Positions 719 through 64,000 of a stretch of 64,000 nucleotides of DNA are shown in pieces (position 1 is the stretch's first letter; each line of letters begins with the position of its first letter). The DNA is from a virus. Lineage: Duplodnaviria; Heunggongvirae; Uroviricota; Caudoviricetes. The stretch is taken from the IMG/VR virus record IMGVR_UViG_3300000944_000006, positions 18,380-82,379 of that record. One strand, written 5' to 3'. Below the pieces are notes generated by a model, which saw nothing but the letters and a program-made list of their open reading frames with translations, was not told the DNA's origin and did no database searches. Position numbers and translations under genes: made by a program.

Positions 719-781
719 ATAGTGAAGTCGCGGTTTCCTATAACCCACTTCTCTAACATTTTAACCAAAGGACTAACCTTC

Positions 782-1420
782 ATGTCAGCTAAACCATATT
801 TATACACTGTATACAAAACAACAAATTTAATCAATAACAAAATCTATGTAGGCGCTCATAAAACGACAAACCCAGATGATTCTTATTTAGGGTCTGGTGT
901 TTATTTAAAAAGGTGTATTAAAAAATATGGAAAAGAAAATTTTAAAAAAGAAGTTTTGTTTATTTTTGAAACAGAGAAGGAAGCCCTGATAAAAGAAAGT
1001 GAAATAGTAGATGAAAATTTTGTCAAAAGTAAAGAAACGTATAATTTAAAATTAGGCGGTGGTAGAAAATTAGGCACTTCTGGATATAAATTTACGGAAG
1101 AACAGAAAAAGAAAATGTGCATTTCACAGCAAAAAAGATGGTCTAATCTTACAGATGAAGAAAGAATTTTAATCCAAGAAAAAAGAAATCGTATTCCCAA
1201 TAAATTAAAAGGGAAGAAGTTGACAAAAAACCATGCTAAAAAAATTAGCGAAGCATTAAAATCTAAAAACTTATTAACACATAATAGTGTTAAAATATCT
1301 ATTAATGATGAAATATTTCTTTCAATAAATAGAGCAGCAAAGGAACTGGATATTAAACCTACTACAATAGTCGGAAGATTAAAAAATAAAAAATATAGAA
1401 AATATTTTAGAATAGAATAG
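782..1420 (+). CDS. GIY-YIG homing endonuclease (seg-like), C-terminal NUMOD3-like repeats
   Basis: N-terminus LYTVYKTTNLINNKIYVGAHKT...YLGSG has the GIY-YIG architecture. Repeated basic K/G-rich motifs (GYKFTEEQKKKM, KGKKLTKNHAKKISEALK) follow. Start moved from 722 to the ATG at 782, which has an AAGGA upstream. Paralog of 63077..63748. Confidence 0.75.
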   Translation: MSAKPYLYTVYKTTNLINNKIYVGAHKTTNPDDSYLGSGVYLKRCIKKYGKENFKKEVLFIFETEKEALIKESEIVDENFVKSKETYNLKLGGGRKLGTSGYKFTEEQKKKMCISQQKRWSNLTDEERILIQEKRNRIPNKLKGKKLTKNHAKKISEALKSKNLLTHNSVKISINDEIFLSINRAAKELDIKPTTIVGRLKNKKYRKYFRIE

Positions 1421-9629: not shown

Positions 9630-10121
9630 CTAAAAATCTGTCATTTTTTTATTTTCTACAAAGCCATTCTTTAAAAGAATATTCTTAACATCGTCAAAAC
9701 CGTCACTCTTTTTTAGCATATACATATTTTCTGATGCTTCATATAGTTCAGTATCAAACACAGAAAGTCCTGTTAAGAATTTTAGCATATAATCACAGCT
9801 TCTATCTGGTATAGAATTATTCTTTTCCCAAAAAAATTCTGACGAAAAGCACATGACTTCAGGAAGACCATTTTCATCATATCCAATACCAAAAAGCTGA
9901 TTTCCACACTCCCATGTCATATAATCAAGGTCTTCGCCTTCTTCATATTCATCTTCGTCCGCAGTATATACTAGAACTTCTAGTCCAGTTTGTTTGTTTT
10001 TAAACTTTCGGAAATAGTCTTCGAATCTATGCTTTTTCTTAGAAAGTCGTTTCCAATCAGAAGTATTTCCGCCATATTCTTCAACTAGAATTTCTTCTTT
10101 AATATAATCTGTAACAGTCAT
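9630..10121 (-). CDS. hypothetical protein (163 aa)
   Basis: ORF. Confidence 0.45.
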   Translation of the reverse strand: MTVTDYIKEEILVEEYGGNTSDWKRLSKKKHRFEDYFRKFKNKQTGLEVLVYTADEDEYEEGEDLDYMTWECGNQLFGIGYDENGLPEVMCFSSEFFWEKNNSIPDRSCDYMLKFLTGLSVFDTELYEASENMYMLKKSDGFDDVKNILLKNGFVENKKMTDF

Positions 10122-10327
10122 AATAATATAATCCCAAATAAACCAAATAATAAAGTTCTGGCTAATCTTTTTTGATTATCGCGCACTAATTTGCTGCTGA
10201 TAACCCAAAAGACAGACGAGACATATCTTTTATACGGATGTAATGAACAGAAAGGGCAATATTCAAAACATCTTCAAAATAATATGTTAACCCCGAAAGG
10301 CCAGATTGACTATACCTTAAAGAAGTT

Positions 10328-10774
10328 TTATGTGCTTGTCAAGCCATTTCGTAATTCTTCACGAACCTTCATTATTATCTTACCAAGCTTGTTTTCACCT
10401 ACACCATTACACACGCCCCAAAACGTATCGTTCCATGTATTATCTTCTACGATTAGACAATTACCTGTGCCTAGAAGTTTTGGCGTAAGGAACATATCAT
10501 TTCGATATTTCTCCCGCGTAAGTTCTAGCATAATATTTTCTTTGATGGAATCCCAATCTTTTCGTATTTTAAGATTTCTTCCATATTTTTTAGCATCGCC
10601 TGCATAGGTTAGTTTAGATATTTTGATTCGTTCTTCTTCGTCTAATGTCTTAGCAGCGACATATGCATGTTCTACAGAAGGATACAAAATATATTCAAAC
10701 ATTATGTCTACACGTTGAAAGTTAGACAACCATCTATATTTGCCATGAAAGCCAATTATATCTTCTTGAAGCAT
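10328..10774 (-). CDS. NADAR-domain protein (YbiA-like; NAD/ADP-ribose-associated)
   Basis: FHGKYRWLSNFQ...YPSVEHAYVAAK...GNCLIVEDNTWNDTFWGV matches the F-x-G-x-Y-x-x-LSNF signature of NADAR/DUF1768. Confidence 0.7.
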   Translation of the reverse strand: MLQEDIIGFHGKYRWLSNFQRVDIMFEYILYPSVEHAYVAAKTLDEEERIKISKLTYAGDAKKYGRNLKIRKDWDSIKENIMLELTREKYRNDMFLTPKLLGTGNCLIVEDNTWNDTFWGVCNGVGENKLGKIIMKVREELRNGLTST

Positions 10775-11016
10775 TAAGTTTCTAACTGTTCAGGAAAAAG
10801 ACATTTATCTGCACGGCAGTCATCAACTAACATTTCAAGCATTGTCAAGGCTTTTTGACGCATTTTATGTTGACTTCTTCCATACACACGAACAGATTGC
10901 ATTGTAGGAATGTGCGTTACAGTCATCCAAGAATTATTTGGGCCGCAATGCCACTGTCCCTTTAATGGCTTGTCAGTATTACCTACAATTTTTATATCTT
11001 TTTCGTCTAACATCAC
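10774..11016 (-). CDS. hypothetical protein (80 aa)
   Basis: ORF. Confidence 0.4.
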   Translation of the reverse strand: MMLDEKDIKIVGNTDKPLKGQWHCGPNNSWMTVTHIPTMQSVRVYGRSQHKMRQKALTMLEMLVDDCRADKCLFPEQLET

Positions 11017-11921
11017 ATGTCCCGCTTTTTTGTTTCGTAGAAGTGTTTAGCGATACCAAAACGAGGGACACCGCGCGGTGTAAGGTTTTGGTATTTGATT
11101 GTCGCAGGATTGCCAATATATTTTTCTTTATTTTTTAAAAGATATCGACAAAATGCCGTGTTGCCTTTTATACCTGCCTTGGCAGTCAATTCACCATCGA
11201 CTCTATAAAGAACACTCTTAGCAGCGCCCATCCATTTACCAGTACCTTCTATAATATCCAAAACTTCGTATTCAGCATCATAGAACTTTTTAACTTTCCA
11301 AATATATTTTGAAATCTTTTGTTCATATGGAGAATCGTGGGGAAAGCGTATCATTATGCCTTCATAACCTTGCTCAATACACATATCTAATTCTTCTTTA
11401 ATAGATTCAATATTAGAATCAAAAAATGCAGTATTAATCAAGTTAACTACACCGCCGTTTTCTGACAGTTGTCCTATGAATTTTTTATAATACATCCAAC
11501 GATTAAAAAATGACATATCAGAACCGTCATAAAAATCGAAAATATGAAACTGTAGATGTTCAACAGCTAATTCAATTTCTTCTTTTGTCGGAACTTGTTT
11601 TTTCGCGAGCGAAATGATTTGATTAAAATCATCTTTGAAGTCGTGATTATAAAGTTCTCCATCTATCACAAGTTTAGGAAATATTTTGAAAACAGGACGA
11701 AGAATATCTTGTATATGTCCTGTTGTTTGGAACAGATTGCCTTCTTTTGTGTAAGCCCCGTCTATAGTGATATAGCATCGAATACCGTCTGCTTTAGGCT
11801 GTCTACAAAGGGCTGTCACACTTGGTGTTGTTTTTATATTTCTAGCAAACCACTTTTCAAGTTCGACTTGCTTATCTTCATCTATCGGGAATGTCCGCGA
11901 TAACATAGGTTTAAATTTCAT
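11013..11921 (-). CDS. ATP-dependent DNA ligase, minimal (adenylation + OB domains only)
   Basis: Motif I KADGIRC (the K-x-D-G-x-R form typical of DNA ligases, as in T4 gp30 KADGAR), DGELY (motif III), YEGIMIR (motif IV). At 302 aa it lacks an N-terminal DNA-binding domain. Confidence 0.7.
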   Translation of the reverse strand: MKFKPMLSRTFPIDEDKQVELEKWFARNIKTTPSVTALCRQPKADGIRCYITIDGAYTKEGNLFQTTGHIQDILRPVFKIFPKLVIDGELYNHDFKDDFNQIISLAKKQVPTKEEIELAVEHLQFHIFDFYDGSDMSFFNRWMYYKKFIGQLSENGGVVNLINTAFFDSNIESIKEELDMCIEQGYEGIMIRFPHDSPYEQKISKYIWKVKKFYDAEYEVLDIIEGTGKWMGAAKSVLYRVDGELTAKAGIKGNTAFCRYLLKNKEKYIGNPATIKYQNLTPRGVPRFGIAKHFYETKKRDM

Positions 11922-17550: not shown

Positions 17551-17569
17551 TTTACTTAGTCTTTCTTAG
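17551..17569. repeat. 19-bp perfect direct repeat, copy 1 (TTTACTTAGTCTTTCTTAG)
   Basis: Identical to 19465..19483. This copy contains the last codons and stop of the upstream gene and lies 1 nt from the next ATG. Confidence 0.8.
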
Positions 17570-18197
17570 CTTTTGGGGTTTCTTTCGGCGTTACGACTTT
17601 TTGTTCAGCAGGTTTATCAGTTGAAGCTTGCGAAACTTTAACAGGTTCTTTAGTAGCGTCTGTTTCGTTTTTAACCGCTTTTTCGACTTTCTTTTTAGTT
17701 GCCTTTTTCTTGGCAGGTTTTTCATCAGCAACTTTATCGACTTTTTTAGGTGCTTTTTCAGCAACTTTCTTCTTAACAGGTTTTTCTGCTGTGGGAAAGT
17801 CGAAACCAAAGACTTCCGAAATGATTTCATTAGAAAGATATGGAAGGTCTTCACCCGCGAAAATAGTTTCTACGAAGTCATATTCAAACGGATGTAGTGT
17901 ATCCATAAGACCTAAATAGATTGATTGTAGACGGTCTGCGCGAACGCGCGTAGGTTCTACAAAATAATTAAACACTTTATATTGTGATACAAGTGATGGC
18001 GCACGTCCAAGAGGATGATTACGCTTTGCAGCAGACACACCTTCTGGCAGTTGCCACATTTTGACTTCAGGATTTACAAGCAATCCCATAAAGTATTCAA
18101 AGCGTGGAAAGTTTTTATTTTCTTCGAGAAAAGCTTTTTTCTCTTCGTCAGTCTTCATGCCTGCGATTTTATTTAAAATTTCACCGATAGATTTCAT
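17556..18197 (-). CDS. hypothetical protein with lysine-rich histone-H1-like C-terminal tail
   Basis: C-terminus KKKVAEKAPKKVDKVADEKPAKKKATKKKVEKAVK... Start set at MKSIGEILNK (internal to the ORF-track start). Confidence 0.5.
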   Translation of the reverse strand: MKSIGEILNKIAGMKTDEEKKAFLEENKNFPRFEYFMGLLVNPEVKMWQLPEGVSAAKRNHPLGRAPSLVSQYKVFNYFVEPTRVRADRLQSIYLGLMDTLHPFEYDFVETIFAGEDLPYLSNEIISEVFGFDFPTAEKPVKKKVAEKAPKKVDKVADEKPAKKKATKKKVEKAVKNETDATKEPVKVSQASTDKPAEQKVVTPKETPKAKKD

Positions 18198-18214
18198 TAT
18201 TCTTTTTTCCTTTT

Positions 18215-18574
18215 TTAATGTATAGCGGTTGTTGGCGAAAGCACATCGAAGACTTTCTTGCATGTGTATTTATAAACCATGCCATTATCCCCATCTAGCT
18301 TTTGTTCTACGCCCATTTCATAATGTGGTGATGTAGCAGACATAGATGCTTCTGTTAGTTCAAAATGCTGTGACATGCCAAAATATGTCACAGACGATGT
18401 GTTTGCACATTGTATCGCTGACAGGATAGTCATATCCGATAGCAATTTCTGCATGAATACAGGACGTTGATAGATATCCGAAACTGAAAAGGTTATATTT
18501 CCAAGACGTTTTCGAATATCCGTCTTTTCGTCCATTTCATCGGCATAATCCATTAAATGTTCTTTTGTATTCAT
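18215..18574 (-). CDS. hypothetical protein (119 aa)
   Basis: ORF. Confidence 0.45.
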   Translation of the reverse strand: MNTKEHLMDYADEMDEKTDIRKRLGNITFSVSDIYQRPVFMQKLLSDMTILSAIQCANTSSVTYFGMSQHFELTEASMSATSPHYEMGVEQKLDGDNGMVYKYTCKKVFDVLSPTTAIH

Positions 18575-19961: not shown

Positions 19962-20363
19962 TTATTCTTTGGTAAAATTTCCCCTGCCAAAGATTTTTAC
20001 ACTTGTGTACATAATACGTGCGCGATGTTTGGCAACACCAGATGCGTCCATAATATATCTGAATTCTTTGTCTGCGAAAGATTTTGTTTTTAATCCATGT
20101 TCGTAAAGATAATCGTGTATTACAGCAGCAAATGTATATTTTCCGAATGGCGGTACAAACGCCCATAATGGCCTTGGTACGCTTGCTAAATCAGTATGTG
20201 TGCCTTTGGGTATAAATATTTCTGTATCGTCAGTAAGTTTTATTTGTATGTCTCTTGTCGTAACAAATCCATATTCAGAAACTTGCGTCACTGTATTATA
20301 TTGATACTCTTTTACATAATTTCTATAATGTGCAATACCTTTATACTTAAACATTATTTTCAC
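19962..20363 (-). CDS. DUF1353-like protein
   Basis: DLASVPRPLW...FGKYTFAAVIHDYLYEHG...ADKEFRYIMD resembles the DUF1353 conserved core. Confidence 0.4.
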   Translation of the reverse strand: MKIMFKYKGIAHYRNYVKEYQYNTVTQVSEYGFVTTRDIQIKLTDDTEIFIPKGTHTDLASVPRPLWAFVPPFGKYTFAAVIHDYLYEHGLKTKSFADKEFRYIMDASGVAKHRARIMYTSVKIFGRGNFTKE

Positions 20364-20406
20364 CCGTTATTTGCTGATAAAAATATTTATAATTTTCGCA
20401 CTTAGG

Positions 20407-20736
20407 TTAACATAAATTTATACTACATTGATTCAATTTCGCTGAATCTAATTTAATATTTCTTATATCGGCTCTTATAATATCTAAATTAGTCAATTTA
20501 AGGATTTCAATTGATTTAGAAGTTTTGAAATAAAGCGTTTCTTTACTATCTTTAAATTTTACGAAAACTTTGTTCAAAAAGTTTTGTTGTGTATCATTTC
20601 CTACATGAAAGTGTACACTAAATAAAACCTCACGCAACCCGTCCTCGGCATAATATCTTAAGCATACATCATTGTGGCCCATGTAATATACACTAACATC
20701 GCGTATATTTGAAAAGTCTATTTTATATTTGTACAT
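20407..20736 (-). CDS. small protein, MYKYKI family
   Basis: Starts MYKYKIDFSN. Paralogous N-termini at 20723, 28514, 29413, 33604 and 35719. Confidence 0.45.
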   Translation of the reverse strand: MYKYKIDFSNIRDVSVYYMGHNDVCLRYYAEDGLREVLFSVHFHVGNDTQQNFLNKVFVKFKDSKETLYFKTSKSIEILKLTNLDIIRADIRNIKLDSAKLNQCSINLC

Positions 20737-21100
20737 GTCTTTGCGTAACCGTGTCTACAAATCGAAAATCTTCAAATGTTAATTCGACTGTATGTGAAGG
20801 AAAATTGAAAGATGTGCTATGTATAGTTGACACACAAAGAATAGCTTCAAAATATAAAATAGATTTTTCTTTGTTAAAATGATTTATAACACGTCTTAGA
20901 ATTGAATTTGCGAAGTCAGTGTTCATTTGTTCATCGCTCGTAGGAAAAATATGTGCATAAATCTTGTGCGTACCTACAAAATAACTAACCATAACATTGC
21001 CACTATCTGTAATAATGACATCCCATGCAGTAGAAAAATCTATTTTAAATTTTTGCGGCGTTTCTAACATGGTTGAAATCTTTCTTTTCTTTAAAAGCAC
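20723..21100 (-). CDS. small protein, MYKYKI-family-like (QKFKIDFST)
   Basis: N-terminal region similar to the neighbouring gene. Confidence 0.4.
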   Translation of the reverse strand: MLLKKRKISTMLETPQKFKIDFSTAWDVIITDSGNVMVSYFVGTHKIYAHIFPTSDEQMNTDFANSILRRVINHFNKEKSILYFEAILCVSTIHSTSFNFPSHTVELTFEDFRFVDTVTQRHVQI

Positions 21101-22448
21101 CGTTATTATAAACTGTCGTTAGTTTATTGTCATCAAGTATATCATCTTCGCCTGTTGTATATTCTCCATTTAGATTAACAGATGTCAGAAATCCTTTTTT
21201 GAATTTCTTTGAATTGTTGGTGAATGATTTGAATGCGGCACGGCGTCCACCATCATCAATAAAAGAATTGGCAGAAGACATAAACTGAAACGTGTTTTTC
21301 GAAACATTTTGGTACATGCTTCCGCGCATACACAGCACAAAGTTGTTAATAGATACTTTACTTGCCTTACATAACTTAACAAAATTTTCAAAATCTTTTA
21401 GAGACTGCCAATCATACTGGAACATAATTTTAACACGATGCGAAATGCGATATCCACGGTCTGTTGTTGTCTGGGGGAAAGTTGCCAAAATCTTTTCCAT
21501 AAGCGCAATGACTTCTTCTTGTGTGATGCCGTTACCACATTTAAGATGCACTTTACGTGTTGTATATGATTCTATTTTTTCTTTTAATATTTCGCATATA
21601 TATGTTTCAACAGCATCTTCGGCATTATGTGTGTCAATAGTTAATGCGGTATTATCTGGCGTTTGCTCGCTGTCAAAGCTTTCTAAAAAGTGTTGATATG
21701 CAAGAACTTCGTTTTGAACGCCCCACGACAATGTGACAAGATTGTCATTTCCATTATATCCACTATTATCTGTAAAGAAATTAGAATAAATTTCATTTCC
21801 AATATTTACGGCAGATGTTGCTTCTGTTGTGTCAAAATTTATAAGATGTGCGATAGCTGTTATATCTGCTGTTTCCTTCGAAGACATTTCAGAAAAGCTT
21901 TCATCATGCAGTACAATATCTTCTGGGCCAATATCATCATATCCAATAGACGTTTCTTCGTCTATAATATCTTTTAAAATTTTCTTTATTTCTCGCGAAA
22001 TTGTAGCAACTGTGGATGGTAGCCATATCGCACGTAACAAAGCCTTTTCTATGTGCGACACAAGCCATGCACACTTAGGGTCTGTGTTGATGACTTGGTA
22101 TAAAGGCGTCTTAAACGGTACAACAGACCCTTCTGGCAGGGCTTGTATTTTTATTGGTATAGCGCCGTCATATGTTTTTAAAATATATTCCCATCCTTCG
22201 TAATTAAATTCCATACCAGATTTTTCTGCAACATTTTGTGCAATTTTCAAATCATCTTCTGTGATAGGTTTCGAAAGATGTTGATTTATAAAAAGGTGAT
22301 GTCCTGTATAGACCATTTCCTTAATAGGTTTGTACTTATCGTCAGACGAACCATTTGCTTCACCACACACAGACGCGTGTTCTAATGTTAATTGGTAATG
22401 ACGTGCAGCGTCAAGTTTGTGGAATAATGTGTTAAGAATAATGCTCAT
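21045..22448 (-). CDS. nicotinamide phosphoribosyltransferase (NAMPT/NadV) family protein, divergent; possibly non-catalytic
   Basis: Block EGWEYILKTYDGAIPIKIQALPEGSVVPFKTPLYQVINTDPKCAWLVSHIEKALLRAIWLPSTVATISREIKKIL aligns closely with NAMPT ([74 protein letters not shown]). Where NAMPT has HDFGYRG the phage protein has HDESFSE, and the His247-equivalent position appears to be Asp. Confidence 0.7.
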   Translation of the reverse strand: MSIILNTLFHKLDAARHYQLTLEHASVCGEANGSSDDKYKPIKEMVYTGHHLFINQHLSKPITEDDLKIAQNVAEKSGMEFNYEGWEYILKTYDGAIPIKIQALPEGSVVPFKTPLYQVINTDPKCAWLVSHIEKALLRAIWLPSTVATISREIKKILKDIIDEETSIGYDDIGPEDIVLHDESFSEMSSKETADITAIAHLINFDTTEATSAVNIGNEIYSNFFTDNSGYNGNDNLVTLSWGVQNEVLAYQHFLESFDSEQTPDNTALTIDTHNAEDAVETYICEILKEKIESYTTRKVHLKCGNGITQEEVIALMEKILATFPQTTTDRGYRISHRVKIMFQYDWQSLKDFENFVKLCKASKVSINNFVLCMRGSMYQNVSKNTFQFMSSANSFIDDGGRRAAFKSFTNNSKKFKKGFLTSVNLNGEYTTGEDDILDDNKLTTVYNNGAFKEKKDFNHVRNAAKI

Positions 22449-22498
22449 ATGGGAATACCTATTTTTTAATAGCTTATTAGATATTTACATACAAGATG

Positions 22499-22837
22499 TC
22501 AACGCTTTTTCACGTAATGGTCAATTTCGATACGGCCAATTTTAGTTGCTGTAACATCAACATAGAAATAATTGCCACTACCAGACGAATATGCTTCTTT
22601 TTCAAAAGATACGTCTTCTTTAGTAAATTCTCCATACACATTATACTGAATTGGCCCAAGATAGAAAAATTTATTTTTATCCACAAGATATTTCGGGATA
22701 ATTATCTTTGCATAGGCAGTTAAAGTTTTACCTTCTTCTTCAGAATATACAGTACCAATTTTTACATAAGAATAATAAATATCGTCGGTAGTTTTAAGTT
22801 CTATACCTTTCCAAACAGTTTTCATTATACTTGTCAT
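22499..22837 (-). CDS. hypothetical protein (112 aa)
   Basis: ORF. Confidence 0.45.
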   Translation of the reverse strand: MTSIMKTVWKGIELKTTDDIYYSYVKIGTVYSEEEGKTLTAYAKIIIPKYLVDKNKFFYLGPIQYNVYGEFTKEDVSFEKEAYSSGSGNYFYVDVTATKIGRIEIDHYVKKR

Positions 22838-23121
22838 GTGTTTATTTCTATTTTATCAAGATTAATGACTTTAAGATATACTATTTTTGCAGTAAATCCA
22901 CTTTTAGTTTCCTCTTCGCCTTTTTTGACTACTTCGAAACCCCCATACACATCAACACAGACGCCTTTCCATAAAAACTGTTCGGGTATGATAGATACGT
23001 CTTCAATAAGAAATCGTATATTATACTTTTCATCTTCATTAGTATGAAAAATTTTTTGAAGATACAGTTCACCAGTATTTGAATACTCGCAGACTTCAAG
23101 CTTTTTGATAACGCCCTTCAT
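22834..23121 (-). CDS. hypothetical protein (95 aa)
   Basis: ORF, 4-nt overlap. Confidence 0.45.
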   Translation of the reverse strand: MKGVIKKLEVCEYSNTGELYLQKIFHTNEDEKYNIRFLIEDVSIIPEQFLWKGVCVDVYGGFEVVKKGEEETKSGFTAKIVYLKVINLDKIEINT

Positions 23122-23123
23122 GG

Positions 23124-23750
23124 TTACAAACCACCAAGACCACCAAGCAGACCATTACCACCTTTGCCTTTAAGCAAGTTGTGCAGACCTTTTGTGATGC
23201 CGTCAATTGCAAGCATAGAATCAATATCGATTGTAAAATTATACTTGTGCGCCGCACAGATTTCAAGTTTTTCGACATCTTCTTTAAATCCAATAAAGGA
23301 TTTCTGGACAAACTTTTCAGCACCAGATGGAAGTGTAAGCTTTGATAAAGGGTGTGAATCTATTGCAGAAATATAAAGAGAACGAAGAATAATATCTTCG
23401 TCAAACGTAAGATGACGCTTCTTTTCTATGACATCATCAAAAGAATGATGGTCTTTGCCTGTACGTGATGCAATTTCTATAGATGCAACACGAAGCATTG
23501 TCTGGGAAGTCTTTTCATCATTTTTTACTGAAGTGCTATAGTGCGTGTCCATGTAATGCAACAGGAACATAAATTCTGCGTATGATGTGCGCGAACCTTT
23601 TGTGAAAACAGACCATGCAAGATATTCTTCGATTTTTAAACGAAGGTGTTTGTCTACACTTTCCCAATTCATAACGTCTTTATCGGTGTGTACAAAAACA
23701 TTATCTAGTTGTTCGCACGGCTCATACTGAAAAATGTTAATATCAGTCAT
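23124..23750 (-). CDS. hypothetical protein with Gly-rich C-terminus
   Basis: Ends KGKGGNGLLGGLGGL. Confidence 0.45.
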   Translation of the reverse strand: MTDINIFQYEPCEQLDNVFVHTDKDVMNWESVDKHLRLKIEEYLAWSVFTKGSRTSYAEFMFLLHYMDTHYSTSVKNDEKTSQTMLRVASIEIASRTGKDHHSFDDVIEKKRHLTFDEDIILRSLYISAIDSHPLSKLTLPSGAEKFVQKSFIGFKEDVEKLEICAAHKYNFTIDIDSMLAIDGITKGLHNLLKGKGGNGLLGGLGGL

Positions 23751-23759
23751 AGTTTTCTC

Positions 23760-24341
23760 CTAAGAAAGTTCTTCAAAAACAGATGGAAAATCATCCGAAA
23801 AATGACCTTCGATTAAATTTTCTAATACAGTTTTGTTTAAGAAACATGACCGTATCTGGTGATTGACATAATACCATATAAAATCTAAACATAAAAGTGT
23901 GTACGCATATGGCTTAAACATGTCTGGATAAGGAAAGAATAATAAAAAGCCTGCGGTTGCAAGAAATACCATAGATGATATTATGGATGTTTTTTTGACA
24001 TATATTTTAATATCTTCTTGCCACACAAACCAGTAGCTAATTGTAGGTAGTGGATTTGGGTATCTTTTATATTTTGCGGCATATTCTACAACTTTTTTTA
24101 GCTGCTCATTAACAACCTTATGACGCTGTTTCAAAACACCATTTGCAGTATTTTGTAGACCAGTGAGGCCGACAGACATTGCTACAACACAACATGTAAA
24201 AATTTTGATGAGTATTAGGCCAGAAAGAAGAAGTTCCATATATGGGAAATTGATTGCAAACATTGCTGCAAGAAATGCTACACCAACAGTACTAGCAAGT
24301 ACATATTTCAACAATATTTTTTCCATAATAAAATTTCTCAT
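23760..24341 (-). CDS. integral membrane protein (about 4 TM)
   Basis: Several long hydrophobic segments. Confidence 0.45.
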   Translation of the reverse strand: MRNFIMEKILLKYVLASTVGVAFLAAMFAINFPYMELLLSGLILIKIFTCCVVAMSVGLTGLQNTANGVLKQRHKVVNEQLKKVVEYAAKYKRYPNPLPTISYWFVWQEDIKIYVKKTSIISSMVFLATAGFLLFFPYPDMFKPYAYTLLCLDFIWYYVNHQIRSCFLNKTVLENLIEGHFSDDFPSVFEELS

Positions 24342-24391
24342 TTGTTTGGTGTTATACTACGCCAATATAATCTAGATGTCAAATTTATATG

Positions 24392-24468
24392 TGGTACGCG
24401 AGGCAAGATTCGAACTTGCGATAGTTCCGTTATGAGCGGAAAGCTTTAGACCACTTAGCTACTCGCGC
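24392..24468 (-). tRNA. tRNA-Met or tRNA-Ile2 (anticodon CAU), CCA encoded
   Basis: Hand-folded cloverleaf: acceptor GCGCGAG/CTCGCGT, anticodon stem TTCCG/CGGAA, loop CTCATAA, T-arm GCAAG-TTCGAAT-CTTGC. 77 nt. Not initiator-like. Confidence 0.7.
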
Positions 24469-24482
24469 ACGACATATAAATT

Positions 24483-24529
24483 TGGAGCGAACAACGGGAC
24501 TCGAACCCGTATATCCGCTTGGTGTTGTT
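24483..24529 (-). pseudogene. tRNA 3' half remnant (T-arm GGGTTCGAGTCCC + acceptor 3' strand + CCA-like end), no 5' half
   Basis: Only 47 nt separate the flanking tRNAs. It contains a perfect T-arm and a 6-bp AACAAC/GTTGTT stem but no D-arm or anticodon arm. Confidence 0.4.
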
Positions 24530-24604
24530 TGGCATGCCCGACAGGACTTGAACCTGTGACCCCAGATTAAAAATCTGATGTTCTACCAACTGAACTACGG
24601 GCAT
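24530..24604 (-). tRNA. tRNA-Lys (anticodon UUU)
   Basis: Acceptor ATGCCCG/CGGGCAT, D-arm GTTC-AGTTGGTAG-AAC, anticodon stem TCAGA/TCTGG with loop TTTTTAA, T-arm ACAGG-TTCAAGT-CCTGT, discriminator G + CCA. Confidence 0.7.
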
Positions 24605-26365: not shown

Positions 26366-27193
26366 TTAGCTAAGATTTTCGAAAATATGCTTAAAGGATG
26401 GTAAAGATATGTCACAGCTTTCGACAGTATATTTCTTTTCACGGTCTTTAGGGCGGAAGTTTTTCTTTCTCATGATGGTTGTAGCAACTAAATCAAATTC
26501 TTTCTTAGAATTATCCCATTTTAAAAAGAATGGGCTGTTAACATTTGTCTTAAGGTCTGTAAGCACAGCACCTATGTCCTTGTGTCTGTTACCTGACTTG
26601 TTTATGTTTTTACCATGCTTTTTAAACGCTTTTATAAACAGGTCTTTTAATTCTTCTATAGTAATTTGCTTACCATTTCGAGAATCATTTAATCTGTCAA
26701 TAAAATGACGTGTAAATTCAATATCAATATCTAAGTTTTTCCACACGCGGTCAAGATAGTTTTCAAGTTCTTTTAACTGCTTTCTTGTGACAGGCGGGTC
26801 TTTTGATTCAAAAATAGTTTTTGAAAATGACTTTGGAAATTTATGTGCAAGACTTAAAAGACGTTCTATAGGTGTTGCTACAAGATATACAGCTATCTTT
26901 TCATCTGGATTTTCATACATCACGCCCATATATCTATGATGTCCATCAAGAATTTTCTTGTCTGAAGAAACGATTAAAGGCTTCTTCATAATTTCTTTAA
27001 CGCCCTTTTCTTTAATCAATCGAGCAAATTGTTGTATCTTCATGTGATTAAAATCAGATTGTGTTGGTTTAAGATTTCCTACGCGCACATATGTTTTGAT
27101 AGTTCGTATATTATGCTGCGTTTTAAGCCATTTAATAAAATCTTTAGCATGGGCCGATTTTATCTGGGGCATGTCTTTACGTTTGATGTCCAT
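26366..27193 (-). CDS. ParB/Srx-like nuclease domain protein
   Basis: LKPTQSDF...KKILDGHHRY matches the ParB N-terminal nuclease-domain signature (L-x-P-T-Q ... DGHHR). Confidence 0.6.
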   Translation of the reverse strand: MDIKRKDMPQIKSAHAKDFIKWLKTQHNIRTIKTYVRVGNLKPTQSDFNHMKIQQFARLIKEKGVKEIMKKPLIVSSDKKILDGHHRYMGVMYENPDEKIAVYLVATPIERLLSLAHKFPKSFSKTIFESKDPPVTRKQLKELENYLDRVWKNLDIDIEFTRHFIDRLNDSRNGKQITIEELKDLFIKAFKKHGKNINKSGNRHKDIGAVLTDLKTNVNSPFFLKWDNSKKEFDLVATTIMRKKNFRPKDREKKYTVESCDISLPSFKHIFENLS

Positions 27194-37061: not shown

Positions 37062-37138
37062 TGGCACACCTAACAGGACTCGAACCTGTAACATCCTGCT
37101 TAGAAGGCAAGCACTCTATCCAGTTGAGTTATAGGTGT
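37062..37138 (-). tRNA. tRNA-Arg (anticodon UCU), CCA encoded, followed by a U-run
   Basis: Acceptor ACACCTA..., D-loop TAACTCAACTGGATAGAGT, anticodon stem CTTGC/GCAGG with loop CTTCTAA, T-arm GGTTCGAGTCC. 77 nt. TTTTTTTATAGG follows the 3' end on the minus strand. Confidence 0.7.
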
Positions 37139-54235: not shown

Positions 54236-54350
54236 GTGCGCGTAACCAAGCTGTGAAAATATCTTCGTCAGAAACTACAATATTATGCTTAGTCATAAGT
54301 TTCTGTAATTTTTGTATAATACTATGCTTCACAAGCAAAACATTCTCCAT
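54147..54350 (-). CDS. hypothetical protein downstream of nrdA
   Basis: Start set at internal MENVLLVK. Confidence 0.35.
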   Translation of the reverse strand: MENVLLVKHSIIQKLQKLMTKHNIVVSDEDIFTAWLRAHEGVWNDDVPDDFDNVMSKIIPHVNVHFE

Positions 54351-57135
54351 TTGATGCCTGAACACCTGCTTCAGACCGTATATAATATAATGACTTAATA
54401 TAAGGATTGACAAAAGCTTCTGAATGTATCATCGCAACATATTCTGGGTCTTCATCAGCAGATATATACAAATTTATAGATTGTGCTTGGTCAATATATT
54501 TTTGTCGTTGTGCCGCATAACGTATAATCGTCAATTGGTCAATCTCAAAAGCTGTTTTGAACAAAGCCTTTTCATCGTCACTAAAAAATTCTAAATGCTG
54601 AACAGACCCTTTATTATCGACAATGGAATCAATAATTGCATCTGTATATTGTCCATGCTTTTCAAGATATTCGATAAGAACTGGATTTATACGGTTCATT
54701 TTACCTGCGGCTGTACCTTGCGTATAAACATTTTTAGGAAATGGTGATATGCCTTCAGAAACACTACCACACACAATAGCAGATGATAGAGTAGGTGCTA
54801 CTGCCATAAGTGTAGCATTGCGTCGACCAAGACCCTTACAAGATTCTGGTTCACCTAATTCTGCGGCAAGCCATTCCGTAGCAGCTTCTGCTTGTACTTG
54901 GATATTTTTAAATATTTCCACATTTTTAAATTGCGCTTCAAGGCTTTCCCAAGGAATACCATTTTTCTGAAAATATGTGTGAAGACCGAGTGTGCCCAAG
55001 CCTAATGCACGGAAACGTTGTGTGAAACGAACGACTTTTTCAAGACCTTCCATATCTTTACCGCGCTGTATAAGGTCTTCGCAAACGCAATCTAAAAGAA
55101 CAATTGCTGTTTCAATCGCATTCGTATCTTTCCATTCATCATATTTTGCCAGATTCATAGACGATAGAACGCAAGAAAATGTATGTTCTTCATCAGAAGG
55201 TAGCGCAATTTCAGAGCAGTTAAATGTTTTCATGCCCTGTGCAATAAATATGTGTTCATCTGTATGTACAGTTGGACAATATACATCTTCTTTACCATAA
55301 TACTCTATAGATTTTATTTTGTAACCCTTTTTAGAATTATCACGATACTTTCGATTTTCTAAATGAACACCTTTTCGGGATAAAAATCCTGTATGTTTTT
55401 CGACAACCAAGCAATCATTTTTATTTCCTACAATAAGTCTCCAACAATCTTTTGTGTTATATAGCTTTTGTCCACCTTTTCCATCTGGCAATAATGATTC
55501 ACCTGCTTTTCTTAGTATTCGTATAGAAGTTTGAAGTCCTAAGTTTTGGAATAAAATTTGAAGTTCTTTAATAAAATCTAAGTTAATATCTGTGTATGAT
55601 AAATGTATAGGATTTCCTTTTGAAGGAGATACATTTATTGTACCATCTGCGTATAATAGCCCGCGAACATATTCCCATTGTGTCTTTTCGTCAGATTCCC
55701 ATATCCAAGAAGGGACATACCCTTTTTCAAAATTCAAGGCTTTTTTAAGAGTAGCAGAAGACAATGTTCTTTTTCTATGGCTTCCTTCGCGAACATGTGA
55801 TTCGCGAAACTTAGCAGGTGTTCTTCCGCGATATTTTCCAGTTTTTCCTATTTCATATTTATCGCATCCGTATTTGTAATGTATTCGGTCAAATTTTTCT
55901 TTGATTTCATTCTCTAAATCAAAATCATTTTCCCAAAGACACAGATGAATAGAATTTTTGTGTTGCGTTCCGTCCGATTGATACTGACCTAACAAAAATG
56001 CTTCATCTTGCATATCGGCATTTCCAAAAATACCTTTGTTAGTTTGAATTGCAATTTTATGACCTATGTTCAGGTCTTTCAATTCAATTCGTGTGATATT
56101 ATTTCTTGCATCAATAACAGGAAACCCATGATTATCCGTGGCTTTAATTTCCATTCCATTTTCTAATGTAACTTTATAAACATCTTGGTTTTCGCCACGT
56201 AAAATCATTTTTGTAGAATTTACCTTATTTTCGCCGTCAAATAATACCAAAGATTCATTTATATCATGAAGTTCTTTAGCTGTTAAATATCCATATGACG
56301 AAACTACGCGCGTATCACCTGTTATACAAAGATTAGAAGCTTTGATTAGCATACCACTATTTTTAATAGCAGGTGGTGCTAAATCATTCATGCGGTCAAT
56401 AAAACAAAAATATCCCTTGCCTGTAACAAGCTTACGCAACAACGCACGTTTAAAGCGAGAATTTGCTTCTTTGTCGCCATTCACTAATCGTGCAATAAAT
56501 TCATCAGAAATATTCCAACCAATATTTAAATCATCTGGATAATTTTTCATATGGTCGCAAATATCCCAAAAATCTCCATGTTCGATTGGAAGATAGCCTG
56601 CCCATGCACCGCGTCTCGAAGACCCTTGTGACACTTGAACTGCTGTATTAACATGTCCTTGGATAACAGGAACTACCCCATCTGCAACACCGTCTACACC
56701 ATATTTCTCGCCACGCGGACGTATATCCCCAAGATATGATGACGTTCCAAAGCCATATTTTGAAAGCATTGCCGTTTCTGTATAAGACCCAAAGAAACCT
56801 GCTATACTATCTGGTGTATAGTTTCCAGAACAGCTTACAGAAAGCCCTTTTTCCGTCCCTGTATTGGACATAACAGGCGTTGAAAGAGAAAGATAACCTT
56901 TCCACACAACATCAAAGAAACGCTTCTCCCAATGCTTAGAATTAGGCATATGGGCGGCGAGTGTTTTAGATATTCTCTTTAATTGCTCTTTATATGTTGT
57001 AGCTTCGAACAGATATTTTTGTTTGAACATAGACCATCCAATAGTTGTAAACCACATAGGAAGGTCGCCATCTTCTTGCATTTTTTTCCGCTCTTGCGAA
57101 AGTTCTTCATAAGTATTTTCGTTTAAATTATCCAC
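54322..57135 (-). CDS. nrdA: ribonucleotide reductase class I large subunit (no ATP-cone), interrupted by an intein at the active-site cysteine
   Basis: Extein junction ...IKASNL|CSEIALPS restores the catalytic SNLCSEI motif. C-terminal CFAC pair present. Extein about 567 aa. Confidence 0.8.
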   Translation of the reverse strand: MDNLNENTYEELSQERKKMQEDGDLPMWFTTIGWSMFKQKYLFEATTYKEQLKRISKTLAAHMPNSKHWEKRFFDVVWKGYLSLSTPVMSNTGTEKGLSVSCSGNYTPDSIAGFFGSYTETAMLSKYGFGTSSYLGDIRPRGEKYGVDGVADGVVPVIQGHVNTAVQVSQGSSRRGAWAGYLPIEHGDFWDICDHMKNYPDDLNIGWNISDEFIARLVNGDKEANSRFKRALLRKLVTGKGYFCFIDRMNDLAPPAIKNSGMLIKASNLCITGDTRVVSSYGYLTAKELHDINESLVLFDGENKVNSTKMILRGENQDVYKVTLENGMEIKATDNHGFPVIDARNNITRIELKDLNIGHKIAIQTNKGIFGNADMQDEAFLLGQYQSDGTQHKNSIHLCLWENDFDLENEIKEKFDRIHYKYGCDKYEIGKTGKYRGRTPAKFRESHVREGSHRKRTLSSATLKKALNFEKGYVPSWIWESDEKTQWEYVRGLLYADGTINVSPSKGNPIHLSYTDINLDFIKELQILFQNLGLQTSIRILRKAGESLLPDGKGGQKLYNTKDCWRLIVGNKNDCLVVEKHTGFLSRKGVHLENRKYRDNSKKGYKIKSIEYYGKEDVYCPTVHTDEHIFIAQGMKTFNCSEIALPSDEEHTFSCVLSSMNLAKYDEWKDTNAIETAIVLLDCVCEDLIQRGKDMEGLEKVVRFTQRFRALGLGTLGLHTYFQKNGIPWESLEAQFKNVEIFKNIQVQAEAATEWLAAELGEPESCKGLGRRNATLMAVAPTLSSAIVCGSVSEGISPFPKNVYTQGTAAGKMNRINPVLIEYLEKHGQYTDAIIDSIVDNKGSVQHLEFFSDDEKALFKTAFEIDQLTIIRYAAQRQKYIDQAQSINLYISADEDPEYVAMIHSEAFVNPYIKSLYYIRSEAGVQASNGECFACEA
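55219..56328 (-). mobile_element. LAGLIDADG homing-endonuclease intein in nrdA (370 aa)
   Basis: Starts CITGDTRVV, contains FLLGQYQSDGT and RGLLYADGT LAGLIDADG motifs, ends ...GMKTFN before Cys+1. Penultimate residue is Phe rather than His. Confidence 0.7.
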
Positions 57136-61653: not shown

Positions 61654-63093
61654 TTAAATTCCTTTTATTATATTTAGAACAAATTTTCTTACGCGCAGGT
61701 CAACCTTTTCGCCCATCAATACAGACGCGAACATTTCTGCCCAAAATTCTCTTACATTTGTTCTAGCATATTCAGTCACGAACCATGAATCATCATAGAT
61801 AAAATCGCCATTTCTTCTTTTGGTTTTTGGTGTTAGTATTCTACGAAGCTTTTGTAATGTTGTCGGACGGCCTTTATAAGTCATGGTAACAAATCCTTTT
61901 GTAAGCATTTCATGAGACTTTCCCATATAATCCCCACTACCATCTGATGTTACGACTATGCCAAAAGGTTTATTTCTAGCACCTTCTTTACCAAAAGACA
62001 GTATTTGGCGACCAGAAGACATATCCAAGACATCTCTTACCATTTCTTCGCCCTTAGAAAGACCATATTTTTTATTTTTGCTTTTATTCCAATAAAATTT
62101 AATATCGTTTGTGTTTTTTATAGATGAAAAAAGGGCTTTTTTAAAAACTGTATAATCTGCGCTACGAACCATGTGCCTTTTAAATTCTTCATCTTTTCTT
62201 ATTTTAGCGTTTTTACCATTAGACTTTTTAGCTTGCGAATAAACTTCTTCTAATGCCTTTCTATCCTTTGAAGAAAAATATTCATAATCTATTTTGTGAC
62301 CTATTTCATGAATAATAACCCGAATAAAAAATCGGTCTGTGTCATGGCGAGGGTCGATAACAAGTTCTTTACTATTAGAATAGTAAAGTCCTGCTGCACG
62401 TCTTGATGAAATAGTCCCAATTATTATATCAGAATTGTCCCATACATTTTCTATTTTTGTACGTTTCATGATACGATATGCTACATTAAGACTTTTCTTA
62501 ACTTTATCTAACTTCTTTGGGTCAAAATTTTCTCTTACCTTAATTTCATTTTTACCTACTTTGATAGTGTTGGTAGATGTTTTGTTAAAAGATGATTTTA
62601 CTTCATCCCAATTAACTTTTTCGGAAAATCTTTTAACCCAATCATGATTAAGCTTTTTATTATTTGTTGCCCATTTATAAAAATCTATAGACGTTTTAAA
62701 AACAATTTTTTCAAGGGCTTTTGGAAATCTTCTTGATACAGCTTCACATGCTTTTAAGTACATGTCCACATTACCATCAAGTTTAGGATAATGAAATGCA
62801 TGTCTAAGTTCTTCGACATAATCATACATTAAACTGTCTGAATATTCCAAACCACTCATAAATTCATTATCAGACCCGTCCCATGATGTGTTGATAAATT
62901 TAGAAAAGTCTTTCTTAGCAATAAACACGTAATGTTTTTCATCCAAACCATTACTATTTTCCGTGTTATAGGGAAAAATAACCATATGATTAGTACGAAA
63001 AGGTGTGCGCGTTGCCATTCTTGCTATACAAGAATTAGAATCGTCGTAATACGGCCTTTCGAATCTTGCCATTTTATTATTCACCATCCACAT
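61654..63093 (-). CDS. large protein with HExxH zinc-metallopeptidase motif
   Basis: VIIHEIGHKIDYEY contains HEIGH. Confidence 0.45.
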   Translation of the reverse strand: MWMVNNKMARFERPYYDDSNSCIARMATRTPFRTNHMVIFPYNTENSNGLDEKHYVFIAKKDFSKFINTSWDGSDNEFMSGLEYSDSLMYDYVEELRHAFHYPKLDGNVDMYLKACEAVSRRFPKALEKIVFKTSIDFYKWATNNKKLNHDWVKRFSEKVNWDEVKSSFNKTSTNTIKVGKNEIKVRENFDPKKLDKVKKSLNVAYRIMKRTKIENVWDNSDIIIGTISSRRAAGLYYSNSKELVIDPRHDTDRFFIRVIIHEIGHKIDYEYFSSKDRKALEEVYSQAKKSNGKNAKIRKDEEFKRHMVRSADYTVFKKALFSSIKNTNDIKFYWNKSKNKKYGLSKGEEMVRDVLDMSSGRQILSFGKEGARNKPFGIVVTSDGSGDYMGKSHEMLTKGFVTMTYKGRPTTLQKLRRILTPKTKRRNGDFIYDDSWFVTEYARTNVREFWAEMFASVLMGEKVDLRVRKFVLNIIKGI

Positions 63094-63748
63094 AAAAAAT
63101 GTTTGGATATTTTTTAGACTTTACTCTATTTCTATAATAGCTTGGGTTCTTTTTCAAAAGTCTTTCTGCTGTTCCACATGTTTCATAAATTACACCATCT
63201 ACAGAAATTCTTTTGCCCGCACTAGGATTATTTCTACCCAATTTAGATTTTCGTAATTTAGTTTTAGTTTCTTCTGAATGTTTATATCCATTTTTCATTC
63301 GTGTTGATATAGATTTTTCAACAATTTCTTTTGGAATGGTTCTGCCGATTAAAGATTTAGATATATTTTCTCTTCGTTTTTTTGTATGTTTTGTTCCTTT
63401 TAAAGAATTTGAAATTTTCAATTTTGTTTCATCAGAATGTTGATATCCGTGCCTTCCATATTTTTCATTGCCGCCAACACCACCTTGCCTTAAATTATAT
63501 GTGTTAGGATTTTTTACAAATTCTTTATTTACTACCTCTTTTTCCTTCTTAAAAATTTCTTCCTTTGACAAACATTCAAATAATATTTCTTTTTTAAAGT
63601 TTTTCCTACCATATTTTTTTATAGATTTTTTAATAACTACGCCACTTCCCAAATATCCATCATTTGGGTTAGATGTTTTGTGAACGCCAACATAAATTTT
63701 TCCATTTATAACATTTGTTATCTTATAAAGCGTATATATTTTTTTCAT
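63077..63748 (-). CDS. GIY-YIG homing endonuclease (second copy)
   Basis: MKKIYTLYKITNVINGKIYVGVHKT...YLGSG... plus NUMOD3-like repeats. About 60% identical over the N-terminal domain to the 782..1420 protein. Start set at MKKIY. TATAAATA (63754-63761, minus) lies 5 nt upstream. Confidence 0.7.
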   Translation of the reverse strand: MKKIYTLYKITNVINGKIYVGVHKTSNPNDGYLGSGVVIKKSIKKYGRKNFKKEILFECLSKEEIFKKEKEVVNKEFVKNPNTYNLRQGGVGGNEKYGRHGYQHSDETKLKISNSLKGTKHTKKRRENISKSLIGRTIPKEIVEKSISTRMKNGYKHSEETKTKLRKSKLGRNNPSAGKRISVDGVIYETCGTAERLLKKNPSYYRNRVKSKKYPNIFYVDGE

Positions 63749-63771
63749 AATATTATTTATAAGATAACAAA

Positions 63772-64000
63772 TCAGTTGAACCAATCCGCTAACTGACTTA
63801 CAACAAGTTTTTTCCACATTGGGTCTGATAAATCAGCCGCATAAGGCACAAGATATCCAAATTCACGAATAGGTATGTACTTGTCTTTCGGCAGTCTACT
63901 AAACCAATCTTTACAAAGTTTTAAAAGAACTTTTTTATTCTCTAAAGGAACGTCATATCTATCGCCAACAAATTCAAGAATATCTTCAAGACGCCCAAAA
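63772..64000 (-). CDS. partial CDS running off the window edge (C-terminal about 75 codons)
   Basis: Open minus-strand frame ending ...QLADWFN stop at 63772. The N-terminus lies outside the window. Confidence 0.4.
   Translation of the reverse strand, partial: FGRLEDILEFVGDRYDVPLENKKVLLKLCKDWFSRLPKDKYIPIREFGYLVPYAADLSDPMWKKLVVSQLADWFN

Follow-up and report, generated by a model that had tools for sequence, protein, structure and literature searches.

The 64,000-nucleotide window analysed here (positions 18,380 to 82,379 of the IMG/VR virus record IMGVR_UViG_3300000944_000006) carries, on its minus strand, an intact gene for a full-length homologue of nicotinamide phosphoribosyltransferase (NAMPT; NadV or Nampt in phages) in which most of the residues of the catalytic core are replaced. 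Judging from the residues lost, this protein, hereafter P0001, is very probably not a working Nampt. The explanation that we favour, with moderate confidence, is that P0001 is an exapted pseudoenzyme, the dead descendant of a NadV from an NARP2 module, which reconstitutes nicotinamide adenine dinucleotide (NAD+), kept as a folded, non-enzymatic protein. By its sequence it qualifies as a pseudoenzyme in the operational sense of the term, that is, an enzyme homologue without the catalytic residues.

Much current work on phage defence concerns the reconstitution of NAD+ by phages (NARP1, NARP2 and NARP3), and P0001 bears both on how such pathways are annotated and on the decay or re-use of anti-defence modules. 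To our knowledge, all phage proteins with the NAMPT fold characterised so far are active enzymes whose catalytic core is intact, and no description of a catalytically dead phage Nampt was found in the searchable literature. Pseudoenzymes are common in enzyme families generally, and P0001 is not a new category in that respect.

Homology and predicted fold

The gene is an open reading frame (ORF) of 467 codons that starts with ATG and encodes 467 amino acids (window positions 21045-22448, Table 1). Its own stop is the only one in the frame, while each of the five other frames contains 12 to 49. A preliminary description of this DNA had placed the protein in the NAMPT family on account of a block of about 70 residues, and this membership is borne out over the full length: PHROG 448 ('nicotinamide phosphoribosyl transferase') matches residues 5 to 466 (E = 1.8e-60), and mammalian NAMPT chains in the PDB match residues 41 to 466 (E = 6e-47). 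P0001 is a genuine NAMPT/NadV homologue, securely so along its whole length. The block itself corresponds to residues 81 to 151 (21996-22208); within it, residues 121 to 150 are 77% identical to the family consensus, a value that elsewhere lies between 17 and 50%.

The AlphaFold2 model of P0001 has a mean predicted local distance difference test score (pLDDT) of 85.7 and a predicted template modelling (TM) score of 0.89. In Foldseek, it superposes end to end on human and mouse NAMPT (PDB 2GVG, 2H3D, 4KFP and others) with TM scores of 0.90 to 0.91 and a root-mean-square deviation of about 2.3 Å over about 480 columns, at 27% identity. Together, the model and the superposition predict a complete two-domain NAMPT fold. 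Confidence is weakest at residues 171 to 180, 221 to 240 (pLDDT 55 to 69) and 261 to 270, which include the region of the catalytic-His loop.

P0001 is a singleton in 5.8 billion protein clusters and is recorded on one contig of 151,219 bp; a megablast search with the window found no DNA-level match among GenBank phages.

The catalytic residues

Every hallmark motif of mammalian NAMPT (HDFGYRG, GTD, AAEHS, RPDSG, QGDG and GSGG) is altered in P0001. The register was obtained from a HMMER pairwise alignment and from MAFFT alignments of 12 and of 121 sequences, all of which agree. The human NAMPT reference, whose numbering is used below unless stated, reproduces the residues cited in the literature and matches the aligned PDB chains. 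In the preliminary description, HDFGYRG had been read as HDESFSE and the region of R311 and D313 as HLKCGNG, and the three independent alignments return the same readings, IRPDSGNP being represented by HLKCGNGI. The claim that His247 is replaced by Asp holds for the loss of the His, while the replacing residue is Asp235 only in the profile alignment and Asn236 in the HMMER pairwise and MAFFT alignments. AAEHS aligns to GNDNL, and the register is ambiguous by one at this place because the loop of P0001 is two residues shorter; whichever register is taken, no His occurs in residues 201 to 253. When checked by alignment, none of R196, D219, H247, R311 and D313 is conserved. The losses also extend beyond those first described, to D16->L, Y18->H, G353->Y, G355->W, G383->R, R392->K, D393->N and K400->S.

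In functional terms, the nicotinamide clamp, formed by Phe193, Tyr18', Asp219 and Asp16' and invariant in 116 to 119 homologues, is replaced by E183, H10, E209 and L8. Both stacking partners of nicotinamide (F193->E, Y18'->H), the Asp recognising its amide (D219->E) and the phospho-acceptor His247 are lost. D16 and Y18 of human NAMPT are, respectively, the Asp contributed by the partner protomer and the Tyr stacking on nicotinamide. NAMPT is autophosphorylated at His247, which links the hydrolysis of ATP to the synthesis of nicotinamide mononucleotide (NMN), and activity falls strongly when this residue is mutated. At the ligands of phosphoribosyl pyrophosphate (PRPP) and NMN, namely R196, R311, D313, G353-D354-G355, G383-G384, R392', K400', K415 and K423, P0001 carries S, K, G, Y-D-W, R-G, K, S, K and K, respectively, so that 4 of 12 ribose-phosphate ligand positions are kept (D354, G384, K415 and K423). 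Most ribose-phosphate and pyrophosphate ligands are thus gone (R196->S, D313->G, K400'->S), and three contact glycines have become Tyr, Trp and Arg; two of these bulky residues, Y345 and W347 of P0001, occupy places where backbone glycines contact the ribose. R392'-D393' and K400' are residues binding the 5-phosphate that each protomer gives to the site of its partner. With its pocket ligands lost, P0001 would not be expected to bind nicotinamide or PRPP productively, and it would consequently make neither NMN nor NAD+.

A comparison with Namat, the nicotinamide ADP-ribose transferase of NARP1, leads to the same residues. Its nicotinamide pocket consists of F189, R192, D215, R306, D13' and Y15', where nicotinamide lies between Phe189 and Tyr15' and forms a hydrogen bond with Asp215 (PMC12774641). 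The ribose of NMN contacts Arg306, Asp308 and the backbone of Gly360, and its phosphate contacts Gly390, Ser391 and Arg399' (PMC12774641). Activity is about 8-fold lower in the D215A mutant and about 11-fold lower in R306A; NMN synthesis is disrupted in R306A too, and NARP1 function is abolished by R306G (PMC12774641). The equivalents of all these contacting or mutated residues are changed simultaneously in P0001. At the place of QGDG, where P0001 keeps D354, Namat has Gly360 and Asp361 in contact with ribose and phosphate (PMC12774641).

A misalignment artefact was considered and ruled out: the methods agree, and they are anchored by H181-D182, D272, D346, Q380, K407 and K414 of P0001. In human numbering, the residues retained are H191, D192, D279, D354, G384, Q388, K415 and K423.

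Comparison with homologues

How unusual is such a set of losses? Among columns conserved in at least 95% of 120 family members (119 database homologues and human NAMPT), P0001 keeps 67 of 134, all other members keeping 115 to 134 (median 133). Substitutions are found in P0001 at 21 positions that are conserved in at least 118 of the 119 homologues, while all four invariant Trp residues survive. We also scored 18 core catalytic sites in 150 diverse representatives, found by searching 1.84 billion proteins exhaustively with HMMER and aligned to the family hidden Markov model (HMM). P0001 keeps 4 of the 18 sites, the fewest of all, whereas 132 of the 137 fully covered domains keep 17 or 18. In 80 viral loci of IMG/VR that carry NAMPT homologues, all 74 full-length NAMPT genes have 18 of 18. 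The losses of P0001 are unique among the approximately 270 homologues and 74 phage NadVs examined.

Curated models agree with these counts. Pfam does not detect the catalytic domain PF04095 in P0001 and finds only the N-terminal PF18127, at 29 bits; the equivalog model NCBIfam NF006629 gives 245 bits for a cut-off of 405, as compared with 505 bits for P0002, the closest relative of P0001. The view of the preliminary description that the canonical catalytic residues are replaced, which made the protein a candidate pseudo-enzyme, is therefore upheld, by the site counts as well as by the failed thresholds. By the column counts, P0001 departs from its family far beyond what chance or ordinary divergence would produce. 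Two other identities were tried and rejected: NAPRT (PncB) or QPRT (NadC), the best NAPRT-type NCBIfam match reaching 14.8 bits for a cut-off of 330, and a known defence-system protein, PADLOC giving no matches.

The sister protein and the missing NatV gene

P0002 is 38% identical to P0001, has the same length of 467 amino acids and is canonical at every site (18 of 18). A C-terminal block of the pattern ..TSVNL.G.YTTGEDD.L.DN.L.. is common only to these two proteins, which are therefore considered to form one clade. P0002 is encoded on a phage-like contig of 11 kb (L001), in the order 173-amino-acid gene, NatV-like gene (349 amino acids, NMNAT plus Nudix), 97-amino-acid gene and NadV. In the window, the counterparts of the 173- and 97-amino-acid genes are genes of 208 and 95 amino acids, respectively, followed as in L001 by the NAMPT gene. 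Two bases separate the stop of the 208-amino-acid gene (23124) from the start codon of the 95-amino-acid gene (23121), at the very place where L001 carries NatV.

A profile built from 66 phage NatVs detected nothing at E <= 10 in all six-frame ORFs of the window and of a 9-kb extension beyond its right edge, reached via an identical Logan contig. The NMNAT partner that the preliminary description proposed to look for is thus missing both at the syntenic position and in the whole of the 73 kb inspected. PHROG scans of about 50 window ORFs of at least 130 amino acids likewise revealed no NMNAT, Prs/Adps or NadR, and the family HMM found no second NAMPT in the window and its extension. A NatV-like gene lies within 6 kb in 71 of the 80 IMG/VR NAMPT loci, and 94% of the phages with a KVP40-type Nampt also encode an Nmnat (bioRxiv 10.1101/2024.02.11.579819). 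Given that NatV is absent from between syntenic flanks, the locus is best read as a dismantled NARP2 module.

The protein of 95 or 97 amino acids adjoins the NAMPT gene in both phages, with or without NatV and whether the NAMPT is catalytic or not, and could belong to the module as a third component. The 95-amino-acid form has no Pfam or PADLOC match, and no close relative of it or of P0002 was found in IMG/VR.

Selection and divergence

A gene that has lost its catalytic function may simply be decaying. We simulated neutral evolution 2000 times, starting from the P0002 coding sequence and drawing substitutions at the base composition of the window. None of the 2000 runs was still stop-free at 70% amino-acid identity, and at the observed 38% the runs had accumulated a mean of 20 stops and a minimum of 7. 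Since neutral runs never stay stop-free, the ORF cannot be a drifting pseudogene. Its GC content (35.6%) has converged on that of the phage (33.7% in the window), away from that of the sister coding sequence (42%). Mean identity to ten other members is 33% for P0001 and 48.5% for P0002, and P0001 is the most divergent of 142 full-length domains (median identity 27.8%), which points to a strongly accelerated branch.

Retention of ancestral residues was evaluated at columns where P0002 carries the family consensus, taken as a proxy for the ancestral state. Columns of the pocket or in contact with ligands are kept in 27% of cases (9/33), and other invariant columns in 61% (46/75; Fisher p = 0.0016). 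Similarly, domain A keeps 70% (32/46), and domain B, the catalytic barrel, 37% (23/62; p = 0.001). It therefore seems that constraint on the pocket was relaxed, and not that a new form of it is being conserved; this is the one observation here that bears on the choice between the roles suggested in the preliminary description (decoy, sensor, binder without turnover, different chemistry). P0001 as a whole appears to be maintained by selection rather than decaying.

Substitution rate ratios (dN/dS) would call for closer relatives, and none was found in a word-based search of the 5.8 billion clusters, in an exhaustive phmmer search of 1.84 billion representatives, in scans of IMG/VR and of JGI metagenomes with peptides of P0001 itself, or among GenBank phages (megablast, tblastn).

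A probable pseudoenzyme

In the scenario that we favour, a NadV ancestor, the Nampt of an NARP2 module, would have lost its NatV partner, the pathway being abandoned perhaps on account of the drain of NARP2 on PRPP and of its cost or toxicity. The pocket would then have been freed of constraint, the rest of the protein remaining under selection, especially domain A and the central helix. These two elements build the NAMPT dimer, and the scaffold so kept would be the most plausible binding surface of P0001. Since the pocket is released and the scaffold kept, P0001 most likely works by binding: it would bind a protein partner or a small molecule rather than catalyse.

Several observations weigh against this scenario. 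The inactivity of P0001 is deduced from residue identity alone, and four of the changes (R311->K, R392'->K, D219->E and E246->D) are conservative; with H191, D192, D279, D354, Q388, K415 and K423 kept, some binding of phosphate or metal might survive. Similarity of fold is partly inherited, because the multiple sequence alignment given to AlphaFold2 consists of canonical NAMPTs. Retention of ancestral residues is about 50% in all conservation classes (p = 0.19); the normal constraint gradient of the family is therefore largely erased, and purifying selection at the level of the fold must be weak or re-patterned. The only selection-type signals that came out positive are the two retention contrasts, pocket against other invariant columns and domain A against domain B, and the list of pocket columns was drawn from what is known of NAMPT structures and from the Namat contacts, not derived from coordinates. 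As P0001 is a singleton, the case for selection is built on simulation and retention contrasts instead of dN/dS. The inspected sequence amounts to 73 of about 151 kb, and a canonical NadV or NatV may lie in the remaining 78 kb or so. Finally, no candidate ligand or partner of P0001 emerged from this analysis.

Four other explanations were considered. The first is a specific sub-case of the pseudoenzyme reading, in which the remodelled pocket at the dimer interface binds a nucleotide or NAD-derived molecule without turnover and thereby shields the phage from NAD-linked defence, as a sponge or sensor for ADP-ribose, the immune signal cyclic ADP-ribose, NMN or NAD+. P0001 does descend from an anti-defence module, new aromatic or basic residues (H10, Y345, W347 and R375) stand in the pocket beside the kept D272, D346, K407 and K414, and the gene lies among small orphan genes of the kind typical of accessory or anti-defence regions, one of them with a faint match to Tad8. 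We nevertheless consider this unlikely: the pocket is the least conserved part of the protein, conservation of the new residues has no support in a singleton, the Tad8 match is below threshold in a protein without homologues, known sponges are small proteins, and PADLOC and Pfam add nothing. A broader and equally doubtful idea is that large phages have more than once turned NadV into a non-catalytic NAMPT-fold protein with a role in the NAD arms race, either sequestering an NAD-derived signal or metabolite in a remodelled pocket or neutralising a protein of host NAD salvage or defence. If true, such proteins, derived from an enzyme, would form a class new to phage counter-defence.

Slightly less likely again is an enzyme of changed chemistry, the type II phosphoribosyltransferase fold acting on another base or sugar-phosphate. 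The predicted fold is intact, H181-D182, D272, D346, Q380, K407 and K414 are retained, three substitutions preserve charge (R311->K, R392->K, D219->E), and the family has already given one substrate switch, Namat. That switch, however, was made with the whole catalytic core kept, whereas P0001 has lost it. Moreover, known type II phosphoribosyltransferases need basic residues for PRPP binding and glycine-rich loops, in which three glycines are now Y, W and R; NAPRT-type models score about 15 bits only; and retention is lowest precisely in the pocket, the catalytic loop being shortened and predicted with low confidence.

P0001 might instead be a functionless relic whose frame stays open for other reasons, such as avoidance of polarity on overlapping downstream genes or a very recent loss. 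The partner gene NatV is lost, retention is flat across conservation classes, P0001 is the fastest-evolving member of the family, and the 3' end of its gene overlaps the next ORF. This is improbable in the light of the neutral runs, none of which stayed open; maintenance of the frame alone is also insufficient to explain why non-pocket columns and domain A are better kept than the pocket and domain B. In addition, P0001 still has all four invariant Trp residues and a stretch of 30 residues with 77% identity, the structure model is confident, and phage genomes usually delete useless genes of 1.4 kb, as happened with NatV.

That P0001 is a dead but dimerising subunit which poisons the NadV of the host, for instance sparing PRPP for nucleotide synthesis, is highly improbable. 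Both protomers do contribute residues to each NAMPT active site, which is located at the dimer interface, preservation is best in domain A and the central helix, the nearest cellular homologues are NadVs of marine Gammaproteobacteria and NARP2/Nampt activity consumes PRPP, but identity to bacterial NadVs is only 32 to 35%, and lowered NAD+ salvage has no clear benefit for a phage.

Other degenerate or split homologues

A second degenerate protein, P0252, is encoded at positions 10001-11353 of locus L003 (ENA ERZ25039472 contig_235, 326,701 bp), a contig of a T4-like jumbo phage with T4 gp13- and gp15-like genes. It is full-length and keeps 5 of the 18 catalytic sites, in the pattern GSFGNDNDRSVEGTQTQK; no NatV was found within 10 kb of its gene. 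P0252 is 26% identical to P0001, nearest to another canonical clade, less divergent overall and still matched by PF04095. Its loss is considered independent, because of this low identity and of the different nearest canonical relatives, and this second case, in a jumbo phage, suggests a recurring route. The P0252 gene adjoins a resolvase-like gene and a HindVP-type restriction-modification pair.

Less clear-cut forms were also encountered. P0125 (L004, 193-3357, on a Logan ERR1719223 contig of 3.4 kb) is a protein of 1,054 amino acids with two tandem NAMPT units, both degenerate (6/16 and 7/18 sites). P0121 is a similar tandem protein of 1,000 amino acids, of which one scored unit keeps 15 of 18 sites, and P0143, on a short contig, is partly degenerate with 10 of 18 kept. 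In three IMG/VR loci (L057, L069 and L082), an otherwise canonical phage NadV is split into two ORFs about 1.1 kb apart. Because the catalytic residues are intact in both halves, the split points to the insertion of a mobile element, such as an intron or a homing endonuclease gene, and not to decay.

Relation to known systems

P0001 shares the predicted two-domain fold with the KVP40-type phage NadV/Nampt of NARP2. It differs from such NadVs in having 4 of 18 catalytic residues, where P0002 and 74 of 74 IMG/VR NadVs have all 18, in lacking a NatV in the inspected sequence, in falling below the NF006629 and PF04095 thresholds, and in a much faster branch. Given the failed catalytic features and curated thresholds, P0001 should not be annotated as a nicotinamide phosphoribosyltransferase or as NARP2.

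Namat is likewise a phage protein of the NAMPT fold, and exemplifies a fold re-purposed in counter-defence. It retains the whole core, however (F189, R192, D215, R306, D13', Y15' and the catalytic His), every equivalent being replaced in P0001, and it works with an adjacent Prs-like gene, Adps, whereas no Prs- or Adps-like gene was found by the PHROG scan of the window ORFs or by a Pfam scan of the immediate neighbours of P0001. With its catalytic core lost and no Adps found, P0001 was ruled out as a Namat, and the loss of the core makes the adenine-selectivity clamp of Namat (R40', F392 and Y396) a moot point. As the KVP40 NadV and Namat both need an intact core, we infer for P0001 a mode of action different from that of all phage proteins with the NAMPT fold characterised so far. 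Mammalian NAMPT offers a precedent for using the fold without catalysis: a non-enzymatic extracellular role (PBEF/visfatin) is debated for it, although its active site is intact.

If P0001 is read as an exapted pseudoenzyme, several consequences follow. The automatic annotation 'nicotinamide phosphoribosyltransferase', and hence NARP2, would be wrong for some phages. NARP2 modules could be taken apart, in keeping with the PRPP cost and toxicity reported for them, and the NAMPT fold could be exapted. Should the new function be one of counter-defence, it would add a new mechanism; should it not be, P0001 would offer a clean natural transition from enzyme to pseudoenzyme in a virus, with an active sister available for comparison.

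Surroundings of the gene

The coordinates of the features are collected in Table 1.

Table 1. Positions in the window of the P0001 gene, its altered motifs and neighbouring features
Feature	Positions	Strand	Basis
Degenerate NAMPT/NadV-fold protein P0001, 467 amino acids	21045..22448	-	ORF, PHROG 448, PDB NAMPT, Foldseek
D16-S17-Y18 -> LFH, residues 8-10 (L8, H10)	22419..22427	-	D and Y in 116/116 aligned homologues
Best-kept block, residues 81-151: domain A strands and start of long central helix	21996..22208	-	Consensus identity
HDFGxRG -> HDESFSE (F193->E, G194->S, R196->S, G197->E)	21888..21908	-	F, G and R invariant in 119/119 homologues
GTD -> TTE (D219->E; Asp hydrogen-bonding the nicotinamide amide)	21822..21830	-	MAFFT alignments
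AAEHST catalytic-His loop -> remodelled, shorter FTDNSGYNGNDNLVTLSWGVQ without His	21714..21776	-	Alignments; low model confidence
RPDSG -> KCGNG (R311->K, P312->C, D313->G, S314->N)	21528..21542	-	Three alignments; R311 equivalent to Namat R306
QGDG -> QYDW (G353->Y, D354 kept, G355->W)	21408..21419	-	MAFFT alignments
GMGG -> CMRG (G383->R, R375)	21321..21332	-	MAFFT alignments
R392'-D393' -> K384-N385, K400' -> S392	21273..21299	-	121-sequence alignment
C-terminal block GFLTSVNLNGEYTTGEDDILDDNKL, common only to P0001 and P0002	21120..21194	-	MAFFT alignment
112-amino-acid gene, unrelated, no L001 counterpart, directly upstream of P0001 gene	22499..22837	-	Locus comparison
95-amino-acid gene, homologue of L001 97-amino-acid gene (L001 7113-7406)	22834..23121	-	36% identity, E = 7e-8
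208-amino-acid gene, homologue of L001 173-amino-acid gene preceding NatV	23124..23750	-	Locus comparison
tRNA-Met(CAT)	24392-24468	-	
tRNA-Lys(TTT)	24530-24604	-	
tRNA-Arg(TCT)	37062-37138	-	

The NAMPT gene lies in a region of 33 to 36% GC packed with about 108 minus-strand genes. PHROG matches in the window include ribonucleotide reductase subunits, a primase, an exonuclease and an ATP-dependent ligase, together with two endolysin-like genes, a RuvC-like resolvase, a methyltransferase and GIY-YIG-type homing endonucleases; these surroundings are unmistakably those of a large virulent phage. The tRNA genes for Met and Lys lie 2 kb upstream of the NAMPT locus. A scan for promoters and terminators over 20300-24500 gave counts not clearly above shuffled expectation, and operon boundaries are not claimed.

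Directly downstream of the NAMPT gene are two small minus-strand genes, 20723-21100, which overlaps its 3' end, and 20407-20736. Their products are weak paralogues (31% identity over 75 amino acids) and both start with K.KIDFS. The first has a faint Pfam match to Tad8, an inhibitor of type II Thoeris (E = 0.009, 16 bits for a cut-off of 27), and no homologue in the 5.8 billion clusters. As the match is below threshold and the only relative is the weak paralogue next to it, this gene was dropped as a lead.

Some features elsewhere in the window deserve mention. PHROG 114 (ATP-dependent DNA ligase) is matched by two minus-strand genes about 6 kb apart, strongly by 11013-11921 (profile positions 244-502) and weakly by 17556-18263 (positions 79-146), and the ligase may be split or duplicated. 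The gene for the large subunit of ribonucleotide reductase (937 amino acids, 54322-57135, minus strand) contains an intein that carries a LAGLIDADG endonuclease domain and interrupts the subunit, as called from precomputed Pfam matches of the identical gene in L002; its PHROG matches form two stretches. Two paralogous genes for homing endonucleases of the I-TevI/GIY-YIG type, at 722-1420 (plus strand) and 63077-63817 (minus strand), match PHROG 314 with E = 8e-48 and 2e-54, respectively; the plus strand, which carries one of them, is otherwise almost devoid of genes. Of the genes that the window has in common with the contig of P0002, the one conserved best is 26366-27193 (minus strand), whose product is 55% identical over 277 amino acids to that of L001 840-2489; it is 275 amino acids long, as compared with 549 in L001, and shows a faint match to Zeta_toxin and weak ParB-like matches.

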